Shown here: one piece after another, positions 1,728 to 41,285 of the stretch
How positions within the stretch are numbered: position 1 is the stretch's first letter
Layout: each line of letters opens with the position of its first letter
Assembly: GCA_964558455.1 (NCBI GenBank)
Contig: CAZLEE010000001.1
Location: forward strand, 4,228 to 68,227
From: an uncultured Verrucomicrobiota bacterium
GTDB taxonomy: Bacteria; Verrucomicrobiota; Verrucomicrobiia; Limisphaerales; Palsa-1400
Direction of reading: 5' to 3'
Length of the DNA: 64,000 bases
Position numbers and translations under genes: made by a program
The notes under the pieces: model-generated
Database searches by the model: none
The model's input: the letters and a program-made list of their open reading frames with translations, nothing else
What the model was told of the DNA's origin: nothing

Positions 1728-2432
1728 TTATTTGGCCGGACGTCCGTAAACCTCAATCTCGGTGTACTCGTTGATGTGGCTCTCGGTGCTGCCGCGCGAA
1801 TAGAGCCGGACGTAGCGCGCCTTGGCTCCCTTGCCCTCTATCAGCTTGCCTTCGTTGGTCTCAAAATATTCGCGGTTGGTTCCCGCTCCCAATCCGTCGC
1901 CATTATCCTGGTCGTTGTTGAACAGGGTGCGGACGTTTTGGGTGAAAGCGGCGTCATCCGCGATCTGGGCCACGACCCCGTGATAGACCTTGGGGGCGTC
2001 GTGCGCGTGCCAGACCACGATGGCGTAAATTTCCTGCGTGCCGCCCAGATCAACTTGCACCCATTGCACCCCTTTGCGGATCAGGACGACGCTTTGCTCG
2101 CTTGATTCCTTGTCGCCGTCGGTGATTTTGGCCAATTGATCCGGCAGCGTGTTGGTGGCGCTGCTGGTCACGGTTTTGCCGCGGGCGACGTTGGACACGC
2201 CGGGGGGCACCATCAAAGGCGGACGGGGTTTGCCGGAGGGCTTTTCCACATTCGGCGCCACAGGACCTTCGGAGGGCGTGCCCAGAAAAGCGGGCGCGGG
2301 CAGTTTGATTTGCAGCGGCACGAGATTCTCAGCGGCAGCGGAGAAAGCAAAGCCGGCGCAGGCGAGGCCGGCCAGAAAAGTCGTTGCCAGCGATTTGAAT
2401 TTTCCTTGATTCAATACTCTTAAATTAGACAT
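1728..2432 (-). CDS. Secreted discoidin (F5/8 type C, galactose-binding-like) domain protein
   Basis: The C-terminal half reads VQVDLGGTQEIYAIVVWHAHD...ARYVRLYSRGSTESHINEYTEIEVYGRP, which is typical of discoidin domains. The ATG at 2432 gives a signal peptide; the ORF is open back to 2483. Confidence 0.65.
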   Translation of the reverse strand: MSNLRVLNQGKFKSLATTFLAGLACAGFAFSAAAENLVPLQIKLPAPAFLGTPSEGPVAPNVEKPSGKPRPPLMVPPGVSNVARGKTVTSSATNTLPDQLAKITDGDKESSEQSVVLIRKGVQWVQVDLGGTQEIYAIVVWHAHDAPKVYHGVVAQIADDAAFTQNVRTLFNNDQDNGDGLGAGTNREYFETNEGKLIEGKGAKARYVRLYSRGSTESHINEYTEIEVYGRPAK

Positions 2433-2542
2433 GCGCCTACAAATAGCCGGAATCGCGAAAGAGCGCACGAAAAAATTTTCCAACCCGCCGCCGCCGCGGA
2501 ACGTGACCGCGCCGCCCGAAAACGGGGCGGGGCGCGGCCCGC

Positions 2543-4072
2543 TTATTTGTTGCCGCCGTCCTCCTTGAAGGGTTTCCCGTCGAGGGTTTCGCGGACGACC
2601 TGGGCCAGCCTGACCGGCGGGTAGGGCTTGGCCAGAAAATTGAAACCTTCGAGAAGGGCGATATCCTTGCCCGCCATGCCGGGGCTGTAACCGCTGGTGT
2701 AAACAACCTTGAGTTTGGGGTTGTCCTGCTGAAGACGTTCGGCGAGCTGGCGGCCTGACATGCCGCCGGGCATCACCATGTCGGTCAACAATAATTTAAT
2801 CTCCCCGCTGTGTTCCTTCCATATCTTGACCGCGGTCGGGCCGGAGTCGGCCTGATAGATGCGGTAACCGCAGAATTCGAGGATGCTGACCACCAGTTCG
2901 CGCAGGATCGGCTCGTCTTCGGCCACGAGGATGGTTTCGTGGCCGGCAGCCATGTTTTGGCGGGTGATGAACCGGGTGTTGCCCTGTTCCGCGGGCGCGG
3001 CCGGGCCTTTGCCCGCGTCGGGCAGGAAAATGGTGAAGGTGGAACCGGCGTTGATCTTGCTTTCGACGATGATCCAGCCGTCATGCTGTTTGACGATGCC
3101 GTAAATGGTGGCCAGTCCGAGACCGGCGCCTTTGCCTACGTCCTTGGTGGTGAAAAAAGGTTCAAAAATGTGGCCGAGGGTTTCAGAATCCATGCCGCAG
3201 CCGGTGTCGGACACTGTCAAACAAACGAACTGGCCGGGACGGGCCTTGGGATTGAGGACCACCGCGACGGGTTCGAGGGTTTGGAGGGAGGTGCGGATGG
3301 TGAATTTCCCGCCGGAAGGCATGGCGTCGCGGGCGTTGAGGGCAAGGTTGAGCAGGACCTGCTCGATCATGCTGATGTCGAGATAGAGGGCGGGAAGGTT
3401 GGCGGCGGGGATGAATTGGAGGGTGATGCTTTCGCCAAGAAGTCCCTGCAACATGGGAATGACGTTGCCGATGATTTCGTTCAGGTTGAGATGGCGGGGT
3501 TGCATGACCTGCTTGCGGCTGAACATGAGCAACTGCCGGATGAGTTTGCCGGCCCGCTGGGCGGCGGAAGAAATCTGGTGGACCGATTTTTCGTTGGCGG
3601 GGAGCAGGACGTGGGATTGCAGGAGCAGATCGGCGTGGCCTTGGATGATGGTGAGAATGTTGTTGAAATCATGGGCGACGCCGGCGGCAAGCTGGCCCAC
3701 CGCCTCCATTTTGACGGAATGACGCAGTTGGGCTTCGAGTTCCAGGCGTTCGGTTATATCGTTGACATAGCAATGGATGGTGTTGGTGTCGGCGATGGGG
3801 ATGAAGGACCAGGAAAGGGTGCGTTTGAGGTGGGAGGTTTGCAAGTTGGTCTTGCTCTCGCCGGTCAAAAGACATTGCAGAACGATGGTGCGCGAATCAG
3901 GCGGCAGAATGGCGGCAACGGAGTCGCAGCCCAGGTTGGCGGCCAGGCGGCGGGCGGCGGCGTTGTAATAGGCCATGGTGCCGTCGGCGGAGAATTCGAG
4001 GAGCGGATTGGGGCTGTTGCGGGTGAAGGCAGCCAGTCTTTGTGTTGGATCCTCGGTGTTCATTGGGGGCAT
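2543..4072 (-). CDS. Cytoplasmic hybrid sensor histidine kinase/response regulator (PAS-HisKA-HATPase_c-REC)
   Basis: H-box AAGVAHDFNNILTII, N/G boxes (LNLALNARDAM, DTGCGM, GKGAGLGLA), and a C-terminal receiver (ILVAEDE...LLLTDMVMPG...KP). Confidence 0.85.
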   Translation of the reverse strand: MPPMNTEDPTQRLAAFTRNSPNPLLEFSADGTMAYYNAAARRLAANLGCDSVAAILPPDSRTIVLQCLLTGESKTNLQTSHLKRTLSWSFIPIADTNTIHCYVNDITERLELEAQLRHSVKMEAVGQLAAGVAHDFNNILTIIQGHADLLLQSHVLLPANEKSVHQISSAAQRAGKLIRQLLMFSRKQVMQPRHLNLNEIIGNVIPMLQGLLGESITLQFIPAANLPALYLDISMIEQVLLNLALNARDAMPSGGKFTIRTSLQTLEPVAVVLNPKARPGQFVCLTVSDTGCGMDSETLGHIFEPFFTTKDVGKGAGLGLATIYGIVKQHDGWIIVESKINAGSTFTIFLPDAGKGPAAPAEQGNTRFITRQNMAAGHETILVAEDEPILRELVVSILEFCGYRIYQADSGPTAVKIWKEHSGEIKLLLTDMVMPGGMSGRQLAERLQQDNPKLKVVYTSGYSPGMAGKDIALLEGFNFLAKPYPPVRLAQVVRETLDGKPFKEDGGNK

Positions 4073-30341: not shown

Positions 30342-30812
30342 ATGAAACCTTTTCACTTCACCTTGGAATCCGTGGCCACCTTGCGCCGGCGGCAGGAGCA
30401 GAGGGCCATGGAAAAATATGCGCAAAGCCTGCTCGCCCGCCATCAGGCGGTGGAAAATCTCGAACGGGTCGGCCGGGATTTGAGCGCGTGCCGGGAGATG
30501 TTGCGCGGCCAGATGTCCGGCGGTTGCACGGCGGCGAAGGCCGTCCAAACCCGGGTTTATGAAAGTTCGCTGATGCAACGCCGCGACGAATGCGCGCGCG
30601 CGCTGGAAAACGCGGAACGCCGGGTGAACGCGGAGCTGCATGTCATGTTGCAGGCGCGCCAGCAACGGGAGATTGTGGATAAATTTTTTGACAAACAAAA
30701 GGCCGGTTACGAGCACGAGCAGGCGCGCGCCGAACAGAAGAACCTGGATGAGATGGCCGGGCGCAGGAGCAAATCCATCTTCGCCTGGAAACAAGCGGAA
30801 AATTCCCTATGA
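30342..30812 (+). CDS. fliJ: Flagellar export chaperone/stalk protein FliJ
   Basis: 156-aa coiled-coil protein (MKPFHFTLESVATLRRRQEQRAMEKYAQSL...) directly after fliI. Confidence 0.7.
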   Translation: MKPFHFTLESVATLRRRQEQRAMEKYAQSLLARHQAVENLERVGRDLSACREMLRGQMSGGCTAAKAVQTRVYESSLMQRRDECARALENAERRVNAELHVMLQARQQREIVDKFFDKQKAGYEHEQARAEQKNLDEMAGRRSKSIFAWKQAENSL

Positions 30813-31405
30813 TCAAACTGCTTACCACCCCTTGGATGACATCGCTGGTCAGCGTCCTCATTTACCTGGGCGCCATGGTGATGTTCTGGAAAACCCCGCC
30901 GCTGCCCAAGCCCGCGCCCGAGGTTGTTTCGACCGGAAAACGCCTGGGGCCTTCATGGGATTTTATCAACCCGGAAGCGGATCAACTCATGGCCGAACTG
31001 AAGACGGAAAAAGCCGCGCTCTCCAAAAAAGAGCAGGACCTCAGCGACCTCGCCGTCCGGTTGCAGGCGGAGCAGGCGGAAATGAATCTGGTCACGCAGT
31101 CCGTCCGGCAATTGCAGGTGGATTTTGATCAAAATGTGTTGCGCATCGGAGTGGAGGAAACGGCCAATTTGAAAAAATTGGCCAAGGTTTATGCGAACAT
31201 GGACCCGGCCAGCGCGGCCAAGATTATCCAGGAAATGGATGATGTGGGGATAATCAAAATAATGGTTTTTATGAAGGACACGGAAACAGCCGTCGTTTTG
31301 GAAGCCATGGCCAAGATGGGCCAGACTCAAGCCAAACGCGCCGCTGCTCTCTCCGACCGGCTTCGCCTGGCTTCATTCCGCAACTCCACCCCCTCTCCCA
31401 AATGA
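30809..31405 (+). CDS. Membrane-anchored MgtE_N/FlbB(MotE)-like flagellar protein
   Basis: N-terminal TM, a coiled coil, then LAKVYANMDPASAAKIIQEMDDVGIIKIMVFMKDTETAVVLEAM (an MgtE-N/FliG-like helical repeat). Confidence 0.5.
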   Translation: MIKLLTTPWMTSLVSVLIYLGAMVMFWKTPPLPKPAPEVVSTGKRLGPSWDFINPEADQLMAELKTEKAALSKKEQDLSDLAVRLQAEQAEMNLVTQSVRQLQVDFDQNVLRIGVEETANLKKLAKVYANMDPASAAKIIQEMDDVGIIKIMVFMKDTETAVVLEAMAKMGQTQAKRAAALSDRLRLASFRNSTPSPK

Positions 31406-34400
31406 TGGATCATTCCTCTGTGGGCGGCGCGACGACCTCGCCGGCCTTGGCGGGAGGTGTCTTCGCCTTGATTGCGGTAACGCCCGCAGCGGCGGCTGCG
31501 GCCTTGGAGGATTTTTTGAGCGTGATGTCGCATGCGACTCGCGATGATTTGGCAAAATCAACCGGTGGCGCAACAGTTTCCCCGGATGTGTCATCGTCCG
31601 GCCAGGATGCGTCGCCATCCATTGTGGCGCAGCCAATCGCGGGAGGCGTGACGGGCCGGGCGGCATTTTATCGGCAGAATATTTTCAATCCGCCATCTTC
31701 CGCCGCCGCCACTTCCAAAAACGCAACCGTTGCGGGCGCGCCTGCGGCTTTGCGGACAACATCCGCATCTCCAAAAAAACTGGCGCAATCGAAGGTTGCC
31801 ACCGTGTCCGCTGTTCAACAGGGCAACTTGGCGAACAAATCCATTTCTATTGCGCCTGCCGTTCAACAGAGTGAGTTGACGGGTAAATCCACCGCACTTG
31901 CCGCTGTGGAGCAGGGGCAGAGCGGGTTGGTGAATGAATCCATTGCGTCCGTCGTTCAACCATGCGAGTCAGCGGGCGAATCCGTTTCCATCACGCCCGC
32001 CGTCCAACAGGGCAAGTCAGCGAGTAAATCCACCACGCCCGCTGTTCAACAAGGACAGGGTGAATTGACGGGCAAACCCGTTGCGCCCGCGATTCAACAG
32101 AACGAGTTGGTGAATGAATCCATCGTGTCTGTCGTTCAACAAGACGGGTTGGCGGGCAAACCCATTTCCATTACGACAACCGCCCAACAAGGCGGATCAG
32201 CGGATAAACCTGTTGCGTCCGCTGCTCAACAGGGACAAGGCGAATTGGCAGATAGACCTGCCGCACCTGTGGTTCAGCAAGACGGGTTGGCGGGTAAATC
32301 CATTGCTATTACGACCATCGTCCAACAGGGTGGGTCAGCAAATGAACCCGCTACGTTTGTTGTTCAGCAGGACGGGCCGGTCAGTAAATCCATTTCCACT
32401 GCGACCGTCATCCAGCAGGGCGAGTCGGCGGGCAAACCTGCCGTGACCGTCGTGCAACAGGAACCGGTCGGGTTGGCCGGCAAACCGGCTGCGCCCGCCG
32501 AGCAAGACGAACTGGTGAACGAATCCACCGCGTCTGTTGCTCAACAAGGCGAGTCGGTGAGCAAATCCATTTTTATTACGACCACCGTCCAACAGGACGG
32601 ATCAGCAAACAAACCCGCCGCGCCTGCCGTTCAGCAAGACGAGTTGGCGAGTAAATCCATTTCCACTGCGACCGTCGTCCAACAGAGCGAGTCAGCAAGC
32701 AAACCTGCCGTGACCGTCGTGCAACAGGAACCGGTCGGGTTGGCCGGCAAACCGGCTGCGCCCGCCGAGCAAGACGAATTGGTGAATGAATCCACCGCGT
32801 CTGTTGCTCAACAAGACGAGTTGGTGAGCAAACCCATATCCATTACGACAACCGTCCAACAGGACGGATCGGCAGATCAACCTGTTGTATCCGCTGCTCA
32901 GCAGGGGCAAGGCGAATTGGCAGATAAACCTGCCGCGCCTGCCGTTCAGCAAGACGGGGCGGTCAGTAAATCCATTTCCACTGCGACCATCGTCCAGCGG
33001 GACGAGTCAGCGGGCAAACCTGCCGTGGCCGTCGTGCAACAGGAACCGGTCGGGTTGGCCGGCAAACCGGTTGCGCCCGCCGAGCAAGACAAATTGGTGG
33101 ACGAATCCACCGCGTCTGTTGCTCAACAAGGCGAGTTGGTGAGCAAACCCATTTCCATTACGACAACCGTTCAACAGGGCGCGTTGGCGAACGAACCTGC
33201 CGCATCCGCTATTCGGCAGGGACAGAATGAATCGACAGACAAACCTGTTGCGCCTGATGTTCAGCAAGACGAGGTTGCGAGCGAATCCATTTCCATCACG
33301 CCCCCCGTCCGGCAGGACGAGTCAGCGAGCAAACCTGCCGTGACCGTCGTGCAACAGGAACAGGTCGGGTTGGCCGGCAAACCCAGTGCGCCCGCCGTTC
33401 AGCAAGACGAGTCGGCGGATTCTCCGTCCGCGCCGGTGGTGGCCGAAATTGCCGACAATGCTCCGCTTCCGGCGCAAACACCAACGCCGTCACTTAATTT
33501 GCCGGGCGATGCGGCGGGGTCCGATGTTCTTGCGGCGGCGGTTTCCGCGCCTGTCCCCGCTCAACCGTCGTTGGTTTCCAATGCGGCCATGACCAAAACA
33601 ACCGTATCCGGGCGCGAAGTCCAGGCGAGCCGATCCCAATCCACGCGGAGCGATGCGGATGTCGCGGGCAAGATGGCCAATCCGCCGCGCGTCACGGACG
33701 ATTCGGAAGTTAAACCTGCCGCCAAAGTGGCGCCGGCTGCATCCCTGCCTGCACAGGGGAAGGCAAAGGAAACCAGCGCAGTGGCAGGAGGAACGGATCA
33801 CGCGAACGGTCAGGCGGCATCGCCGGAGGTAACAACGACATCTTTGCCGCAGGCGCCAGCGGCGGATCTTTCCATCACACCGGCGATGGCCGGCGTTGAG
33901 ATTGATGGCACGGTGAGTGCTTTAAATGGCCAACAGATGAAATCGACGCCAGAAAAGGACGAAATTGCCGGGCTTGCCGCGCAAAAAATGCCGGGGGCAC
34001 CCTGGCTGGCTGGCGTTTCTGTCAAAGCGTCGGATAATTTGGCCGTCGATTCCGATTCTGGTCCGTCAACCTCCGGGAATGTGATATCGGCGTCGTCCGT
34101 TGTCATCAACATGGCGGCCAAAACGGCGGAGACCACTTTGGGGGCGGTTGCAACAGCCGTCCCGGCTTCTTCCGCCGATCACGCCGCGGCGCAGGTGGAG
34201 CGTCTGGGAAATTGGGTGACTCAACAAGTTGTCATGGTGCAACAGTCCGGGATCAATAACATTGCGGTTTCGCTCAAACCCAATGCGGAGACCGAGCTGA
34301 GTTTGCAATTGACAAGTCACAACGGGCGGATTGAGGCAACCCTGAGTTTGGAACGGGGGGCCATGCCCGGGCTGGAGAGTCACTGGAAAGATTTGCAGGA

Positions 34401-34626
34401 ATCCCTCAGCCGGCAAAACGTGCAACTGCTTCCGCTGGAAAATAAAACGGCGGCCAGGACGTCCGCTTTGAATTCGTCCTTCGACAGTTCGTCACAAAAC
34501 TCCCGGCGGCAGAGCCGGGATACAGAACAAGAGTGGGTGCCGGCAGGGGAGATGGCGGCGCCGCTCGCAACCGGTAAAACAAAAGCCACGGCGACTTCCC
34601 GGCGGGGATGGGAATCCTGGGCCTGA
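31402..34626 (+). CDS. fliK: Giant flagellar hook-length control protein FliK (1074 aa) with a repetitive ruler region
   Basis: It sits between fliJ and flgD-flgE. The C-terminal Flg_hook-like domain reads AAQVERLGNWVTQQVVMVQQSGINNIAVSLKPNAETELSLQLTSHNGRIEATLSLE, and the centre is about 546 aa of tandem repeats. Confidence 0.8.
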   Translation: MMDHSSVGGATTSPALAGGVFALIAVTPAAAAAALEDFLSVMSHATRDDLAKSTGGATVSPDVSSSGQDASPSIVAQPIAGGVTGRAAFYRQNIFNPPSSAAATSKNATVAGAPAALRTTSASPKKLAQSKVATVSAVQQGNLANKSISIAPAVQQSELTGKSTALAAVEQGQSGLVNESIASVVQPCESAGESVSITPAVQQGKSASKSTTPAVQQGQGELTGKPVAPAIQQNELVNESIVSVVQQDGLAGKPISITTTAQQGGSADKPVASAAQQGQGELADRPAAPVVQQDGLAGKSIAITTIVQQGGSANEPATFVVQQDGPVSKSISTATVIQQGESAGKPAVTVVQQEPVGLAGKPAAPAEQDELVNESTASVAQQGESVSKSIFITTTVQQDGSANKPAAPAVQQDELASKSISTATVVQQSESASKPAVTVVQQEPVGLAGKPAAPAEQDELVNESTASVAQQDELVSKPISITTTVQQDGSADQPVVSAAQQGQGELADKPAAPAVQQDGAVSKSISTATIVQRDESAGKPAVAVVQQEPVGLAGKPVAPAEQDKLVDESTASVAQQGELVSKPISITTTVQQGALANEPAASAIRQGQNESTDKPVAPDVQQDEVASESISITPPVRQDESASKPAVTVVQQEQVGLAGKPSAPAVQQDESADSPSAPVVAEIADNAPLPAQTPTPSLNLPGDAAGSDVLAAAVSAPVPAQPSLVSNAAMTKTTVSGREVQASRSQSTRSDADVAGKMANPPRVTDDSEVKPAAKVAPAASLPAQGKAKETSAVAGGTDHANGQAASPEVTTTSLPQAPAADLSITPAMAGVEIDGTVSALNGQQMKSTPEKDEIAGLAAQKMPGAPWLAGVSVKASDNLAVDSDSGPSTSGNVISASSVVINMAAKTAETTLGAVATAVPASSADHAAAQVERLGNWVTQQVVMVQQSGINNIAVSLKPNAETELSLQLTSHNGRIEATLSLERGAMPGLESHWKDLQESLSRQNVQLLPLENKTAARTSALNSSFDSSSQNSRRQSRDTEQEWVPAGEMAAPLATGKTKATATSRRGWESWA
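31804..33441 (+). repeat. In-frame tandem repeat array inside fliK
   Basis: About 36 units (manual count) of 13-17 aa of the type [AV]VQQ[DGE]x[LSV][AV]xK[PS].... Higher-order DNA copies start at 32434, 32701, 33016 and 33331 (periods 267, 315 and 315 bp). The first 78 nt of copies 1 and 2 are identical. Confidence 0.95.
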
Positions 34627-34633
34627 AATATTT

Positions 34634-35053
34634 ATGTCAACCACCGCAATTAATTCCAATACAAACAGCGCGGCCGCCAGTTCCAGTCAGACGTTGAACC
34701 AGGCGGACTTTTTGAAATTGCTGGTCACACAAATGACCTCGCAAGATCCGCTGAACCCGCAGAGCGACACCGATTTTGCCGCGCAACTGGCGCAATTCAG
34801 CTCGTTGCAGGAAACCACCAACATGGCCGGCTACATGCAAACCCTGCAAGCCGATTCAATGATTGGCATGAATGTGAATGTGGCTTCCGCCGCCAACAGC
34901 GCCCAACAGGTCAGCGGCGTGGTGAGCGGAGTGGACATATCGTCCGGCACGCCGGAAATTTCAGTGAATGGGGAGGATTATTCATTAAGCCAGGTGTCCT
35001 CCATCACTCCCGCGACGACCCAAACAGCCGCCAGTTCCGGCGCATCCCAGTAA
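34634..35053 (+). CDS. flgD: Flagellar hook capping/assembly protein FlgD (short form)
   Basis: LNQADFLKLLVTQMTSQDPLNPQSDTDFAAQLAQFSSLQ. Confidence 0.9.
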   Translation: MSTTAINSNTNSAAASSSQTLNQADFLKLLVTQMTSQDPLNPQSDTDFAAQLAQFSSLQETTNMAGYMQTLQADSMIGMNVNVASAANSAQQVSGVVSGVDISSGTPEISVNGEDYSLSQVSSITPATTQTAASSGASQ

Positions 35054-35113
35054 TCCATGAATCCAGTCAAGTAACTCGTAAACCCAGTCGATAACCCCTA
35101 ACACAAAAAATAT

Positions 35114-35941
35114 ATGCTTAGTTCTTTAAGTTCAGGCCTCAGTGGTCTCGACAACTTCCAGGAGCAAATGAACGTGATTGGCAACAATATCGCCAACATC
35201 AACACCACCGGTTTCAAAGACGGTGAGGTTAGTTTTGCCGACACGTTCTGCAACACCGTCCAGGGCGGTTCTTCCACCATCCCGGCCATGCAGGTCGGCA
35301 CGGGTGTTGAGATAACTGCCACGGGCAGCAATTGGTCGCAAGGATCGCTGACTACCACGGGTGTGGCGAGCAATCTGGCCGTGTCCGGCGCCGGTTTTTT
35401 CACGGTGGTTGATCCGACCACAGGCAGCTCGTATGTCACACAGGACGGTTCATTTACAGTGAACTCGACCGGCCAGTTGGTCACGGCCAACGGGGACATC
35501 GTGCAGGGCTACAACAGCAGCAGTTTGTCCACCATTGGCAACCTGACTCTCAATATCACCGGTTCCACCAGCACCTCGCCCATCTCCTCCTACGCCATTA
35601 ACAAACAGGGTCAAATCACCGTGACTCAAAGCGACGGCACGAACTTTGTCTGCGGCCAGGTCCTGCTGCAGAACTTCCAGGATCCGAACATGCTGACCAA
35701 CGTGGGCAACAACCTGTATTCCAACACCGCGAATGCGGGGCCGACCACGCCTACGGCGGTCGCGCCGGGAAGCAACGGTTTGGGCACCATCGAATCAGGC
35801 GAACTGGAAGGTTCCAACGTGGATCTTTCGACCGAGATGACAAACCTGATCACCGCCCAACGCGCTTTTGAGGCAAACTCAAAGATCATCACCACCAGCA
35901 ACGAATTGCTCCAAACCGTGGTGAATCTGCAACAAGGTTAA
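35114..35941 (+). CDS. flgE: Flagellar hook protein FlgE (short, 275 aa)
   Basis: SSGLSGLDNFQEQMNVIGNNIANINTTGFK at the N-terminus and LEGSNVDLSTEMTNLITAQRAFEANSKII at the C-terminus. Confidence 0.85.
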   Translation: MLSSLSSGLSGLDNFQEQMNVIGNNIANINTTGFKDGEVSFADTFCNTVQGGSSTIPAMQVGTGVEITATGSNWSQGSLTTTGVASNLAVSGAGFFTVVDPTTGSSYVTQDGSFTVNSTGQLVTANGDIVQGYNSSSLSTIGNLTLNITGSTSTSPISSYAINKQGQITVTQSDGTNFVCGQVLLQNFQDPNMLTNVGNNLYSNTANAGPTTPTAVAPGSNGLGTIESGELEGSNVDLSTEMTNLITAQRAFEANSKIITTSNELLQTVVNLQQG

Positions 35942-35954
35942 GGGCTAAACCCAT

Positions 35955-36575
35955 ATGGCCAGCACACCAAACGAGCAACCGCGGACGCGGGAGGAAGCGA
36001 AAGCTTCGGACAGCGGCAAGGCAGGCGCCGCCGACGCCAAGGGCGAAGGCAAGGCGGCAGTTTCCGCGCCGGGCGGCGGTCTCAAACCGTGGCTGCCGCT
36101 GATTGTCGCCGTGGTGTGCATGCCGATGCTGGCCTTTGCCACCATGCGTCTTGTCTTGCTGCCAAAGCTGGAACGCGCCGTGAACCAGACCAAGCCCGGC
36201 GCAGCGGTCTCCAACGCGTCAGCCGAAACGGCGGGGTCCGAAAAGGAAGGGGAAAAGGCGGGTGGCGACAAAGCCAAAGTGACCGTGGCGTTGAGCAAAA
36301 TGCTGGTGAACGTGGCGGGCACGATGGGGACGCGTTACCTGATGACCAGCGTGACGCTGGTTGGGAACACCCCGGACTTTAAAAGCAAGGTGGACGAGAA
36401 CAAGGATCAACTCATGGATCTGGCGACCAGCACGCTTAGCAGCAAGACCATTGCCGATCTGGAAAAGCCCGGTGCGCGCAACGTCATCCGGGCGGAGTTG
36501 ATGACTGTGTTCAATGAAGCGCTGGGCGCGCCTTTGGTGCAGGAAATTTACATCACCGAATTGGCTATCCAATAA
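35955..36575 (+). CDS. fliL: Flagellar basal body-associated protein FliL
   Basis: Single TM, then VALSKMLVNVAGTMGTRYLMTSVTLVG...IRAELMTVFNEALG...EIYITELAIQ. Confidence 0.85.
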   Translation: MASTPNEQPRTREEAKASDSGKAGAADAKGEGKAAVSAPGGGLKPWLPLIVAVVCMPMLAFATMRLVLLPKLERAVNQTKPGAAVSNASAETAGSEKEGEKAGGDKAKVTVALSKMLVNVAGTMGTRYLMTSVTLVGNTPDFKSKVDENKDQLMDLATSTLSSKTIADLEKPGARNVIRAELMTVFNEALGAPLVQEIYITELAIQ

Positions 36576-36584
36576 ATTCCGCCC

Positions 36585-37601
36585 ATGAACGAAGACACCG
36601 CCCGCCTTGAGCAGTCCGAGCCGACCCCTTCCATTTTTGAAGGCGGAGGCAACGTGGGCCTGGCGTTGGCGGAAGGCGAAGCGCCCCGGCAAGGGACATT
36701 GCGCTGCCATGACTTCCGGAATCCATTGCTCCTGTCGTCGCTGGAATCGCACAAATTGCGCTTGCGGCAGGAGGAAATCATGCGGCAGGTGGCGGCGCGG
36801 ATTTCGGTTCATTTGCATCTGGAATTTTCGTTGAAAATTGTCAGCTTGCAGACCCTCACTTACCAAAGTCTGGCGGAAAGCTGGAAAGTTCCGTCCCATT
36901 TCAATTTGTTCAAGATGGAACCCTTGCGCGGGGTGTCCATTCTTGACATATCGAGCGAGCTTGGTTTTTGCCTGATGGACCGTTTGATGGGCGGCCCGGG
37001 CCACGGCTGCGGACCGGGGCAGGAGATCAGCGACATCGAGAAGGTGTTGCTGGAGCAAACAGTGCAAGTCTTCATGGAGGAATGGTGCCGCCATTGGGCC
37101 GCGATCAAGGAATTGAAACCCGTCGTACTGGGCTACGAAAACAAGGGTGATTACATTCAGGCGGCATCGGGCGAAACGGTCATGCTGGTCATCACCATGG
37201 AAGGCGGATTGGCCGGGCGGACCGGACAAATCCAGATGAGCGTGCCTTACGCGGCCCTGGAGCCGTTGATCAAACGGATCTGCCAGGGGGCAGACACGCC
37301 CGCAATCCCTGCAACTCCGGCCGTTCCAGCGCCGCCGCGCGCGCCGGCCGCTCCTGCGCCGGTGTTGAAATGGAACAACTGCTTTAATGACGTTTGCGTT
37401 CCGGTCACGGCGGAATGGGAGGGGCTGGAACTGACCGCGCGCCAGATCCTGGCGCTGAAAGTCGGCGACGTTCTGCCGCTGGCTGCGCAGCATCTGCAAC
37501 GTATTAACGTGCGTGTGGCTGACACTCTTAAATTTTACGGGCGCCCCGGAGCGCAATCGGGGCAATGGGCGGTGGAACTGACCCAAGTGATCAAATCGTA
37601 A
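36585..37601 (+). CDS. fliM: Flagellar motor switch protein FliM
   Basis: HDFRNPLLLSS...LRLRQEEIMRQVAARIS..., and a C-terminal SpoA-like LKVGDVLPL... Confidence 0.9.
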   Translation: MNEDTARLEQSEPTPSIFEGGGNVGLALAEGEAPRQGTLRCHDFRNPLLLSSLESHKLRLRQEEIMRQVAARISVHLHLEFSLKIVSLQTLTYQSLAESWKVPSHFNLFKMEPLRGVSILDISSELGFCLMDRLMGGPGHGCGPGQEISDIEKVLLEQTVQVFMEEWCRHWAAIKELKPVVLGYENKGDYIQAASGETVMLVITMEGGLAGRTGQIQMSVPYAALEPLIKRICQGADTPAIPATPAVPAPPRAPAAPAPVLKWNNCFNDVCVPVTAEWEGLELTARQILALKVGDVLPLAAQHLQRINVRVADTLKFYGRPGAQSGQWAVELTQVIKS

Positions 37602-37610
37602 GCGAGCATT

Positions 37611-37874
37611 ATGGAACCAACCGAAAAAAACTCTCCAGGCCTCGAAGTGTTGCTGGGCGTCAAAGTCAAACTGACCGCGGAACTTGGCTCGTGCCAGTTG
37701 CCCATGCGCGATGTCCTGCAATTTAATGTCAGTTCCATAGTCAAACTGGACAAGACAACGCAGGCGCCGGTGGACCTCTACGCCAACCAGACCCGCATCG
37801 CGCGGGGCGAAGTGGTGGTGGTGGACGATTCTTACGGCATCAAAATCACCGAGATATTTGGAGTCAATCCATGA
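37611..37874 (+). CDS. fliN: Flagellar motor switch protein FliN (SpoA domain only, 87 aa)
   Basis: VKVKLTAELGSCQLPMRDVLQFNVSSIVKLD...VDLYANQTRIARGEVVVVDDSYGIKITEI. Confidence 0.9.
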   Translation: MEPTEKNSPGLEVLLGVKVKLTAELGSCQLPMRDVLQFNVSSIVKLDKTTQAPVDLYANQTRIARGEVVVVDDSYGIKITEIFGVNP

Positions 37875-38326
37875 CCGGCTGTTCCCGCAAAACAGGGACG
37901 CGGATGGCGGCAGGACTGTTCCTCCTCAGTTCGACAGTCCTGAACGCGGCCGGGGAGACGCCCGGAGCTGCCCAGGCCGCGACCTTGCCCGATGCGGGGG
38001 CGTCGGTCGTGCGGGTATGCGGGGCGTTTTGCCTGGTGGTGGCGTTGTTTTTGGCCGGAGTCTGGCTGTTCCGCAACTGGCAGAAATTTGCCATTCGCAA
38101 AAACGGCGGGGCAAAACTGGCTTTGCTGGAAGCGAAATCGCTGGGACAGCGGCAGGCCATTTACGTGGTGGGTTATCAACAACAACGCCTGTTGCTGGCG
38201 ACGTCGCCGGCGGGGGTGACCCTGATCAGCCATCTGCCGGATGCGGACGAAGAGGAACCGAAACCCGGCGGCACGAGCGTGGGTTTCACCGAGGTTTTGC
38301 AACACGTCTTGAGCAGGAAGCAATGA
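37871..38326 (+). CDS. fliO: Flagellar biosynthesis protein FliO-like
   Basis: A single TM (VCGAFCLVVALFLAGVWLF) and then LLEAKSLGQRQAIYVVGYQQQRLLLATSPAGVTLI. ATGA overlaps occur on both sides. Confidence 0.55.
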   Translation: MTGCSRKTGTRMAAGLFLLSSTVLNAAGETPGAAQAATLPDAGASVVRVCGAFCLVVALFLAGVWLFRNWQKFAIRKNGGAKLALLEAKSLGQRQAIYVVGYQQQRLLLATSPAGVTLISHLPDADEEEPKPGGTSVGFTEVLQHVLSRKQ

Positions 38327-39144
38327 ACCCGCCCGATTCCAATTTTTGCCCGTCCCTCCGCCGCTGCCTGCGGGGCGGGGTCTGGTTGCGCCGGGGATTG
38401 CTGCTGGGGCAGTTGCTTTTTTGCGCGGGCGCCCATGCGCAGTCCGCCACCAACGCCCTCGCCAATACCAATGCCTTCAATTTGAGCCTGAGCCTGAACA
38501 GCGGGGCGCAGGGCGGGGATGTGGACGGAGCCATCAAGATCATGATCATCATGACCTTGCTCACCCTGGCGCCGTCGATCATTCTATTGACAACCTGTTT
38601 TACGCGCATCGTGATTGTGCTCTCCTTCGTGCGCTCGGCCCTTTCCCTGCAAGGAACGCCGTCCAGCCAGATCATCATCGGGCTGTCCTTGTTCCTGACG
38701 TATTTCATCATGGAGCCGGTTTGGACAAAAGTGGACCGCGATGCGCTGGAGCCGTACCGGGCCGGGCAAATTACGAGCGCCGTGGCCTTGGACAGGGCGA
38801 CGGTACCGTTGCGGGCTTTCATGCTCAAGCAAACGCGGCCAAAGGATGTGGAACTGTTTGTGGCCCTGGCCAAGACCGGGCCGATGGCGCCTGACAAACT
38901 GCCGCTGAAGATCGTGATCCCGAGTTTCATCATCAGCGAGTTGCGCACCGCCTTTCAGATGGGTTTTCTGCTTTTCGTGCCATTTGTCCTGATTGACCTG
39001 GTGGTGGCGACCGTGCTGATGAGCATGGGGATGATGATGATGCCGCCCATGACCATTTCGATGCCCTTGAAAATCCTTTTGTTTGTTTTGGTGGACGGCT
39101 GGCATTTGGTGGTCAGCTCCATCATCCAAAGTTTCGGAACCTGA
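38323..39144 (+). CDS. fliP: Flagellar export apparatus protein FliP
   Basis: TLAPSIILLTTCFTRIVIVLSFVRSALSLQGTPSSQIIIGLSLFLTYFIMEPV. The in-frame upstream extension to 37858 in the ORF track is not coding for FliP. Confidence 0.95.
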   Translation: MNPPDSNFCPSLRRCLRGGVWLRRGLLLGQLLFCAGAHAQSATNALANTNAFNLSLSLNSGAQGGDVDGAIKIMIIMTLLTLAPSIILLTTCFTRIVIVLSFVRSALSLQGTPSSQIIIGLSLFLTYFIMEPVWTKVDRDALEPYRAGQITSAVALDRATVPLRAFMLKQTRPKDVELFVALAKTGPMAPDKLPLKIVIPSFIISELRTAFQMGFLLFVPFVLIDLVVATVLMSMGMMMMPPMTISMPLKILLFVLVDGWHLVVSSIIQSFGT

Positions 39145-39148
39145 TGCC

Positions 39149-39418
39149 ATGAACCCTGAATTTGCCACGGAATTGCTCAAGAACCTGATGTTTGTCGCGG
39201 TGACCCTGGCCGCGCCGGTATTATTGACAGCGTTGGTGGTGGGACTGGCCATCAGCATTTTCCAATCCGTCACGTCGATTCAGGAGCAGACGCTGACCTT
39301 TGTGCCGAAGGCGCTGGCGATCGTGGCCTTGCTGGTGGTGATGATGCCGTGGATGTTGCGCACTCTGATTGAGTTCACGACCTCGGTCATTCAAAAAATG
39401 CCGCAAATGGTGCAGTAA
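39149..39418 (+). CDS. fliQ: Flagellar export apparatus protein FliQ
   Basis: 89 aa, APVLLTALVVGLAISIFQSVTSIQEQTLTFVPK. Confidence 0.9.
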   Translation: MNPEFATELLKNLMFVAVTLAAPVLLTALVVGLAISIFQSVTSIQEQTLTFVPKALAIVALLVVMMPWMLRTLIEFTTSVIQKMPQMVQ

Positions 39419-39426
39419 GGGGCAAC

Positions 39427-40188
39427 ATGAGCGAGTTGATGTATGGCATGATGGTCTTCCTGAGGGTGAGTGCCTTGCTGGCGGTTTTCCCGGTTTTTTC
39501 AACGGCCAATTTTCCCGTGCAACTGCGTCTGGCGCTCGGGGTGTTGCTGGCCGTGCTGATCGTTCCCTCCCTCCCCCAAGGCATGGCGGAACCGCGGGAT
39601 GTGTGGGGATGGATGGGACTGATGACAATGGAAGTGGGGGTGGGTTTGTTGTTTGGATTTATCAGCCGGATGGTTTTTTACGCGTTGGACATGGCAGGGG
39701 CGATCATCACGTCGGAGATGGGATTGCAACTGCCTTCGAGCATGAATCCGATGAGCGGGTCGGAAGTGACGACGCCCGGGTTGATGCTGTATTACCTCGC
39801 GGCGATGCTGTGGTTGAGCCTCGACCTGCATCACTGGCTGCTGGTTGCGCTGGTGAAAACCTATCAATGGCTGCCCATCGGCGGGGCGCATTTGAACGCG
39901 ATGGGGCTGGCCGATGTGCTGGCGCGGACCAGCCAGATTTTTGTGATTGCGCTGCAAGTGGCGGCGCCGGTGATGGCGGTGTCATTCATCGTCTCGCTCG
40001 TTTTCTCGGTGCTGGGTCGGGCGGTGCCGCAGATGAACGTTTTCCAGGAAAGCTTTGCCGTGCGCATTCTGGCCGGGTTGAGCGTTTTCGGGCTGACGCT
40101 GCAATTAATGTCGCAGCACATCATCAACAATTTAAGGCGGTTGCCTGAGGACGTGCTAAACGTGGCCCAAATTTTTGGAGCGCACTAG
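39427..40188 (+). CDS. fliR: Flagellar export apparatus protein FliR
   Basis: Polytopic 253-aa protein after fliQ, with LRVSALLAVFPVFS...MAGAIITSEMGLQ. Confidence 0.85.
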   Translation: MSELMYGMMVFLRVSALLAVFPVFSTANFPVQLRLALGVLLAVLIVPSLPQGMAEPRDVWGWMGLMTMEVGVGLLFGFISRMVFYALDMAGAIITSEMGLQLPSSMNPMSGSEVTTPGLMLYYLAAMLWLSLDLHHWLLVALVKTYQWLPIGGAHLNAMGLADVLARTSQIFVIALQVAAPVMAVSFIVSLVFSVLGRAVPQMNVFQESFAVRILAGLSVFGLTLQLMSQHIINNLRRLPEDVLNVAQIFGAH

Positions 40189-40199
40189 AACGGAATCAA

Positions 40200-41285
40200 G
40201 TGAGCGAACACAGCGGCGAAAAAACAGAGCAGGCCACACCGAAGCGGCTGGAGGAGGCCTATAACAAGGGCCAAATCGCGCGCAGCCGCGAGGTGCAGAC
40301 GGCTTTTGTATTGGTCGCTGCCTTGGTGGCCCTGGCTTTTTCGGGCGGCGAAATGTGGCGGATTTTGACTCATACCCAGGTGTCGATCCTGGGCCATCTG
40401 CACGACATTCCCCTGTCTGTCGGCACCATTCAGGCCTATGCCATCCAAAGCTCCCTCGTCTTCGGAACCTGTGTCTGGCCGATCCTGACCGCGACGGTGC
40501 TGGCGGGTTTGCTGGCCGGGGGCATCCAAACGCGTTTCCGCACCACGCCGGAGGCCCTGAGCATCAATTGGGAGCGGCTCAATCCGGTGGAAGGGTTCCA
40601 TCGCCTCTTTTCCTTCCGGTCGGCGGTGCCCACGTTGATCAACATCATCAAACTCGGGGTCATCATTATATTGACCTATAACGTGATCCGCGACGTCCTG
40701 GCGGACCCGATTTTCTACACATCAGTCGATATAGCAAGAATTGCCGGATTCATGGCGGAATCTTCCTTTCGCATCATCATCCGGGTCTCCGCCGTGCTGG
40801 TGATTTTGGCTGCGGCCGACTATGCGTATCAATTTTGGCAAAATAATCAGGACATGAAGATGACCAAGGAAGAGGTCAAGGAAGAGACCAAAAACACCGA
40901 AGGCAACCCGCAGATAAAAACGCAGCGCCGCCGCCGGGCGCTATCGGCCGCCAAACGCAAGATGCTTGCGGAAATCCCTAAGGCGGATGTGGTTGTGGTT
41001 AATCCAACCCATATCGCGGTTGCATTGCGTTATGACCGGAAGACGATGCGAGCGCCCAAAATTGTGGCCAAGGGAAGCCGTTTAAACGCCCTGCGCATCC
41101 GCGAAATTGCGCAGGAACACCAGGTGCCAATTGTGGAAAATGTGCCGTTGGCCCGGCTGATGTTTAAGTACGGCCGGGTGGGTGGCGAGATTCCTGCTGA
41201 ACTGTACGCCGCAGTCGCTGAAGTGTTGGCGTGGGTCTATCGCGTCAATGCCTATCGGTATTACCGGGAAGCGGCGAATAACTGA
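40200..41285 (+). CDS. flhB: Flagellar export switch protein FlhB
   Basis: EKTEQATPKRLEEAYNKGQIARSREV and the NPTH autocleavage site (VVVNPTHIAVALRY). GTG start. Confidence 0.95.
   Translation: MSEHSGEKTEQATPKRLEEAYNKGQIARSREVQTAFVLVAALVALAFSGGEMWRILTHTQVSILGHLHDIPLSVGTIQAYAIQSSLVFGTCVWPILTATVLAGLLAGGIQTRFRTTPEALSINWERLNPVEGFHRLFSFRSAVPTLINIIKLGVIIILTYNVIRDVLADPIFYTSVDIARIAGFMAESSFRIIIRVSAVLVILAAADYAYQFWQNNQDMKMTKEEVKEETKNTEGNPQIKTQRRRRALSAAKRKMLAEIPKADVVVVNPTHIAVALRYDRKTMRAPKIVAKGSRLNALRIREIAQEHQVPIVENVPLARLMFKYGRVGGEIPAELYAAVAEVLAWVYRVNAYRYYREAANN

Follow-up and report, generated by a model that had tools for sequence, protein, structure and literature searches.

Tandem-repeat array in the central part of FliK, a probable hook-length ruler, of an uncultured Verrucomicrobiota bacterium

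A 64,000-nucleotide (nt) window of a contig from an uncultured, soil-type Verrucomicrobiota bacterium (Limisphaerales), to which all coordinates below refer, carries a flagellar fliK gene of 1074 codons (31402-34626) with a tandem array of 36 short in-frame units in its central part (31807-33438). Gene and array, like the parts of the gene placed below, lie on the + strand. We think it fairly probable that this array acts as the central, probably unfolded ruler or spacer of FliK and that its units are, on rare occasions, gained, lost or exchanged in frame, which would be likely to alter the length of the hook.

Repeat architecture of the fliK gene

The 1074-amino-acid (aa) open reading frame (ORF), whose ATG overlaps the stop codon of the upstream motE-like gene, was assigned to fliK on the basis of synteny, a profile match to the Salmonella FliK structure and Flg_hook matches among its orthologues, in agreement with the initial annotation. 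The operon includes fliF and further on reads fliI, fliJ, motE-like (198 aa), fliK, flgD, flgE (275 aa), fliL, fliM and fliN, after which it continues with fliO-R, flhB, flhA, flhF, a sigma factor gene, motA and motB. A scan with FliI yielded 80 loci of Verrucomicrobiota, Limisphaerales or Pedosphaera type (FliI up to 88% identical), and the order fliI-fliJ-motE-like-fliK-flgD-flgE is kept in about 60 of these. The C-terminal FliK domain (Flg_hook or T3S4 type) was placed at aa 942-1009 (34225-34428), where Pfam Flg_hook (PF02120) scored 16.6-20.2 bits on the single window sequence against a cut-off of 29.8. A profile built from the last 180 aa of 61 orthologues matched the Salmonella FliK C-terminal domain (PDB 2RRL; E = 1.1e-5), and 43 of the 61 matched Flg_hook individually (best E 2.2e-7). 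Known FliK proteins are secreted during hook assembly and switch export specificity via FlhB, and their loss leads to polyhooks.

The array comprises 36 units of 14-16 aa (42-48 nt), 544 aa in all (aa 136-679). Fourteen older, more degenerate proximal units (A1-A14; 31807-32445; 60-73% identity to the reference unit pair) are followed by three higher-order copies (H1, H2 and H3) and two end units. H1 (32446-32712; 267 nt) consists of units a, b, c, d, f and g and has no unit e; H2 (32713-33027) and H3 (33028-33342), both of 315 nt, contain units a to g. A partial fourth copy, made up of one a-type unit and a degenerate terminal unit, closes the array (33343-33438). Within the array, the long copies make up the youngest layer. 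The initial annotation had confined the array to 32434-33420; repeats are present there, but the true array is larger.

Tandem Repeats Finder detected a period of 267 nt at 32267-32874 (2.3 copies, 86% matches) and an overlapping one of 315 nt at 32609-33397 (2.5 copies, 85% matches). A gap-free repeat finder returned a 300-nt repeat family whose members start 267, 315 and 315 nt apart. The copy starts (32434, 32701, 33016 and 33331) and the periods that had been read by eye are all present; the fourth long copy proposed at 33331 was reduced to the two end units. All array periods are multiples of 3 and fall within the single 1074-codon ORF. Outside the array, no further copies of the repeat were found within the 64-kb window.

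The longest exact repeat measures 80 nt (32432-32511 and 32699-32778) and includes the identical 78-nt opening of copies 1 and 2 described in the initial annotation. A 33-nt stretch of it recurs at 33329-33361, so that this 33-nt exact repeat is present three times in the array. Shuffling 31700-33600 100 times gave no exact repeat longer than 14 nt, so the periodicity is not attributable to chance. The copies starting at 32434 and 32701 differ at two positions in the first 100 nt and at three in the first 120, one more than had been reported for about 120 nt. The term near-identical applies to the first ~115-130 nt of each long copy, to which the high similarity is confined; compared over their whole length without gaps, the copies are 77.5% (1 vs 2) and 84.1% (2 vs 3) identical. 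The 267-nt copy corresponds to a 315-nt copy lacking one 48-nt (16-aa) unit, and with this indel placed the identities among the three long copies become 88.8% (H1 and H2), 84.1% (H2 and H3) and 86.1% (the remaining pair). Units a-c are 88-100% alike and units d, e and f 71-90%, with d-e-f of H3 only 71-75% identical to those of H2. A run of 80 identical nt amid 46 mismatches in 357 aligned nt has a probability of ~2e-4, and as such a tract is non-random in copies otherwise differing by 11-16%, it points to past exchange between copies.

At the protein level, the units follow the consensus xxVQQ[DG]E[SL]A.K[SP]..., with Q at position 5 in 34 of the 36 units and V, A or I at position 3 in every one. 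The array is rich in A, Q, V, S and P, net acidic and contains two aromatic residues in 545 aa. AlphaFold2, run without an alignment, gave predicted local distance difference test (pLDDT) values below 50 throughout the array and the following linker; low values obtained in this way are weak evidence for disorder, and the array is compatible, on this weak ground, with an unfolded chain. The sole exception in FliK was aa 924-1013, which includes the C-terminal domain and was modelled as an alpha/beta fold with moderate confidence.

A non-coding or RNA reading of the repeats was dropped, as the ORF remains open for 1074 codons and the ratio of nonsynonymous to synonymous substitution rates (dN/dS) is below 1. 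An Rfam scan over the window found no RNA family. Short ORFs of 85-110 aa recur along 32114-33267, both in alternative frames and on the minus strand, with the same period as the array; they look like by-products of periodic GC-rich sequence rather than genes.

Divergence of the array between lineages and species

A sister lineage was found by searching with the MotE-like protein, a 98% identical homologue of which is present on six contigs. Flanking operon DNA is 97.8% identical between window and sister lineage over 10.0 and 5.7 kb, which by sequence amounts to species-level similarity. Contig L088 spans nt 1-1874 of the sister fliK and overlaps contig L001 by 1003 nt with two single-nucleotide polymorphisms (SNPs); the composite gene measures 3336 nt and encodes 1111 aa, as compared with 3225 nt and 1074 aa in the window. 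L087, L088 and L091 match each other exactly where they cover the fliK array.

In a global MAFFT alignment, gene nt 1-1347 align at 89-100% identity with one 3-nt indel, and nt 2044-3225 at 91-98%. The segment between them (32749-33444; gene nt 1348-2043) shows 47-74% identity with a net gain of 111 nt in the sister lineage and is the sole part of fliK and its flanks that could not be aligned. H3 and the end units fall wholly inside this segment, as does most of H2, so that over about 19 kb divergence peaks within the flagged repeat region. From the proximal units onward, gene nt 406-1098 are 97% identical to the sister lineage, and the proximal units are collinear. The sister array contains H1 and a single H2-like block that sits elsewhere in the order; each lineage has private units, and the best unit matches within the divergent segment are 65-94%. 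The six-unit, 267-nt form of H1 is common to both lineages (sister units B5-B10). For some units the positional orthologue is not the closest match, other units being more similar, a pattern that reads as a signature of conversion. Synonymous divergence (dS) is 0.23-0.26 between the long copies and 0.05-0.10 between the two lineages, so the long copies are old.

Differences of the same kind were found in related species. Loci L002 and L003, whose flanks are 90-93% identical, differ in fliK by 342 nt, exactly two 171-nt units; their array of 171-nt (57-aa) units occupies the same FliK position as that of the window and is unrelated to it. As the initial annotation had proposed, gain and loss are in frame: all indels in the array and between relatives are multiples of 3, most of them whole units. 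Among FliK orthologues from about 60 related species, the shortest has 381 aa and the longest 1813 (median about 537), and the window FliK is the fifth longest of 62. Internal repeats were scored with 40-aa window queries, since self-BLASTP of whole proteins returned only the diagonal; FliK length correlated with the number of repeat-covered residues (r = 0.70). Arrays with periods of 78, 114/228, 165, 171 and 237 nt are present in different lineages, and BLASTP found no similarity to the window's repeat region among the other FliK proteins of the clade. The longest FliK (1813 aa; L071:12542-17983) has 978 residues in internal repeats. Another of 1775 aa (L026:12426-17753) has only 291, so the bulk of its additional length shows no recognisable repeats.

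In several metagenome-assembled genomes (MAGs; L002, L028, L051 and L054) fliK is split in two frames. On the 3-Mb contig of L002 (12423-15051), for instance, the parts encode 580 and 329 aa and lie 1 nt out of register with L003. Such split genes represent either assembly indel errors or pseudogenes. Nine MAGs (L006, L008, L029, L030, L043, L054, L063, L071 and L075) carry a Verrucomicrobia-type flagellar locus with FliI 76-86% identical to that of the window under titles naming Saccharimonadales, Baltobacteraceae, Klebsiella, Bifidobacterium/Bifidobacteriaceae or Akkermansia muciniphila; they are probably mislabelled or contaminated bins.

Mode of change and alternative readings

In the mode of change that we propose, duplication would have acted both on individual units of 14-16 aa and on groups of six or seven of them (267 and 315 nt), and the array would change as misaligned copies gain, lose or exchange units in frame. 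Unequal recombination, gene conversion and replication slippage, acting on identity tracts of 30-80 nt, are candidate mechanisms; allele exchange between lineages may contribute as well. Such events would be rare, being visible between strains or lineages of one species and between species. In those type III secretion system (T3SS) rulers that have been tested, how long the structure becomes depends on how long the secreted protein is, and each change in the array should therefore alter hook length.

Several points weigh against this reading. Unit matches of 65-94% fall below what simple reshuffling would leave after a split at dS 0.05-0.10, so in-situ slippage alone does not explain the difference between the lineages. 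The dN/dS values of 0.40-0.60 between long copies, together with the retention of VQQ..K even in the old units, indicate that the array sequence is constrained, unlike what might be expected of a pure spacer. Assemblies of the same lineage show no copy-number difference, with a sole exception (L090) that lies on a repeat junction of a k = 31 assembly. Finally, we infer the ruler function of the array and its effect on the hook by analogy with known systems.

The low unit matches could also mean that the difference between the lineages arose mainly by homologous recombination with a divergent fliK middle, the array being a mosaic cassette. We hold this to be possible, though clearly less probable than change by unit gain, loss and exchange. 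The borders of the divergent segment are sharp, falling at gene nt 1347 and 2044, private units are found on either side of the comparison, and the divergence of the segment far exceeds that of the flanks. However, no donor allele was found in the FliK protein searches and contig-collection scans, conversion between diverged units within the array may equally give rise to clustered differences, and the clean two-unit difference between L002 and L003 needs no import. Import of this kind is in any case compatible with the explanation preferred here, in which exchange between lineages may play a part.

Constraint on the array sequence would also be expected if the repeats bound, for example, hook, cap or export-gate proteins and their length were secondary. 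In favour of such a sequence-specific role, which appears improbable, VQQ and K[SP] are conserved over all 36 units, the old ones included, and dN/dS is well short of 1. Related lineages, however, have unrelated repeats, or none, at the same position, the non-repeated parts of FliK give a similar dN/dS (0.47-0.62, between lineages), and no Pfam family matched the array at E up to 0.01.

Exact-match queries with FlgD and the MotE-like protein, encoded on either side of fliK, led to contigs of the window's own lineage. L082, a separately bounded 34-kb Joint Genome Institute (JGI) contig, is 100% identical to window positions 30770-41053, the whole 3225-nt fliK included, and the Logan contig L083 covers 33332-35130 at 100% identity. 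The 1074-aa protein itself had no exact match on record, although L082 encodes it. Scans of genome and metagenome contig collections with the C-terminal 394 aa of FliK gave no confirmed relative, and protein searches with full-length and C-terminal FliK, whose candidates were probably in large part unrelated low-complexity proteins, gave, among the matches listed, only P0001 and relatives at ~50% identity; these FliK protein searches missed identical copies later found by the other routes.

These contigs bear on the proposal that the gene is a contingency locus, in which frequent recombination or slippage of the long copies would make FliK and hook length differ between cells of a population. 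RecA-dependent exchange in Escherichia coli requires a minimum of roughly 25-30 nt, which is exceeded by the 80-nt exact repeat (spaced 267 nt) and its 33-nt third copy, and L090 shows an in-frame deletion of 765 nt exactly between two 42-nt exact repeats. Nevertheless, we regard such a locus as very improbable. The long copies are diverged, more so than the two lineages are from each other at synonymous sites, the 267-nt form is common to both lineages, L082 and L083 equal the window, and L087, L088, L091 and L001 agree save for the two SNPs. Moreover, L090 comes from a k = 31 assembly with its junction at the gene's only exact repeat of at least 31 nt, where a second k = 31 contig ends. Since the copies have diverged and the assemblies of one lineage agree, rapid switching is not indicated. 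The hotspot for length variation suggested in the initial annotation thus holds on a strain-to-species timescale (1074 vs 1111 aa), while switching from cell to cell is not supported.

Logan assemblies, which use k = 31, proved unreliable in such genes. In the sister fliK, the only exact repeat of at least 31 nt is a 42-mer at nt 977 and 1742. L091 (1668-2669) ends inside it and L090 (1856-4426) joins both copies, giving an apparently complete FliK of 856 aa with 765 nt missing in frame; a mis-join is a simpler reading of this than a real deletion allele. JGI contigs run through the region. With L083, which starts at the 33-nt exact repeat of the window array, three k = 31 contigs are broken or mis-joined where exact repeats of 33-42 nt occur, and the warning that short-read assemblies may collapse the array was justified to that extent. 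It follows that FliK lengths from short-k assemblies should not be trusted, and the same applies to other repeat-bearing proteins. That the copy number in the window is itself collapsed or expanded and its architecture an artefact is highly unlikely: one JGI contig (L001) also ends inside the array, but the window array contains no exact repeat beyond 80 nt, a length exceeded by ordinary reads and by the top k of common metagenome assemblers, the frame is open throughout and the array is reproduced at 100% on L082.

Flanking features and relation to known rulers

The array is flanked by non-repeated regions. The N-terminal region (aa 1-135; 31402-31806) is rich in A, S and T, is 94% identical to the sister lineage at the nt level and presumably contains, by comparison with Salmonella FliK, the export signal and the hook-cap-binding part; a motif EDFLSVMS within it is common to L002-L004. 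Downstream, an A/S/P-rich linker (about aa 680-923; 33439-34170; 95% nt identity to the sister lineage) connects the array to the C-terminal part. The extreme C-terminus, WESWA (aa 1070-1074; 34609-34623), is the most conserved FliK feature of the clade in the alignment of 61 orthologues, with the final W and A invariant and E present in at least 90%; the remainder of the C-terminal tail varies. WESWA may be a contact needed for the export switch.

The motE-like gene (30809-31405), between fliJ and fliK, overlaps each neighbour by 4 nt and is found at the same position in all related loci. Its product shows a weak MgtE_N match and is named MotE (MotC chaperone) by JGI and MotE family protein by NCBI. 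The hook-protein gene after flgD (35114-35941) encodes only 275 aa, with Flg_bb_rod, FlgE/F/G D1 and C-terminal domains; enterobacterial FlgE has roughly 400 aa. The operon thus pairs a very long ruler with a small hook subunit.

The FliK of Salmonella enterica (405 aa) and that of the window are alike in their C-terminal domains, which are homologous by profile, and in being encoded beside flgD-flgE at the same point of the gene order. The Salmonella protein has an unstructured N-terminal and central part, as is proposed here for the window FliK, which is ~2.6 times longer and half of which is tandem array. Salmonella FliK is described as two domains, N-terminal and C-terminal, with a flexible linker between them (PMC6972891), and engineered variants of 363-785 aa gave hooks of 42-135 nm, increasing linearly by 0.2 nm per residue (PMC6126814). 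If this scaling applied here, each short unit would correspond to ~3 nm of hook and each long copy to 18-21 nm, and the 37-aa difference between the lineages would be worth about 7 nm. Extrapolation of the Salmonella line to 1074 aa would predict a hook of roughly 190 nm.

The closest precedent, and a direct one for the number of repeats determining how long a structure becomes, is YscP of Yersinia, a T3SS ruler that, like the window FliK, has tandem motifs in its middle part. According to PMC3469391 (citing Wagner 2009), strains differ naturally in the number of 14-, 25- and 46-aa repeats (452-538 aa), and YscP length is linear with needle length. YscP belongs to an injectisome and the window FliK to a flagellum, and their repeat sequences are unrelated; polymorphism between strains and its phenotype are documented for YscP, as against one within-species sequence comparison for the window FliK. 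In-frame unit differences between close relatives, as in YscP, were found here as well, namely between the 1074- and 1111-aa proteins, between L002 and L003 (2 x 171 nt) and in the presence or absence of unit e.

Variable-number tandem repeat (VNTR) and contingency genes, such as that for the streptococcal alpha C protein, contain coding repeats that are nearly 100% identical and vary within populations. The window fliK resembles them in having in-frame tandem coding repeats hundreds of nt long, a type of repeat that recombination can add or remove. It differs from them in that its copies are 84-89% identical, with only the 80-nt and 33-nt tracts exact, and are stable across the available assemblies. 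In phage tails, the length of the tape-measure protein sets tail length, and internal duplications or deletions change it. These proteins are non-homologous and act in another assembly system, so that the analogy is one of principle only.

Judged from its sequence, the fliK array is a fresh example of a known principle, the repeat-built T3SS ruler. A literature search of incomplete coverage found no report of natural tandem-repeat polymorphism in FliK; matches for Brucella, Dickeya, Burkholderia and Campylobacter were unrelated. FliK is a textbook molecular ruler, for which the evidence that length sets the hook comes from engineered Salmonella variants. The present case would add a flagellar ruler whose array varies among lineages within a species as well as from one sister species to another; related lineages carry unrelated arrays at the same position. 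A further step, which we put forward tentatively and consider rather doubtful, is that hook length is a fast-evolving, lineage-specific trait of the Limisphaerales, tuned by repeated independent repeat expansion of FliK. If the scaling of 0.2 nm per residue holds, the shortest hooks of the clade would measure about 45 nm and the longest well over 300 nm; if it fails, the ruler model would need amending for very long FliK proteins. In either case the clade would put the ruler model to a natural test beyond the enterobacteria; should hooks track FliK lengths, it would offer natural allelic series for doing so and would allow one to ask why hook length varies in soil or peat bacteria.

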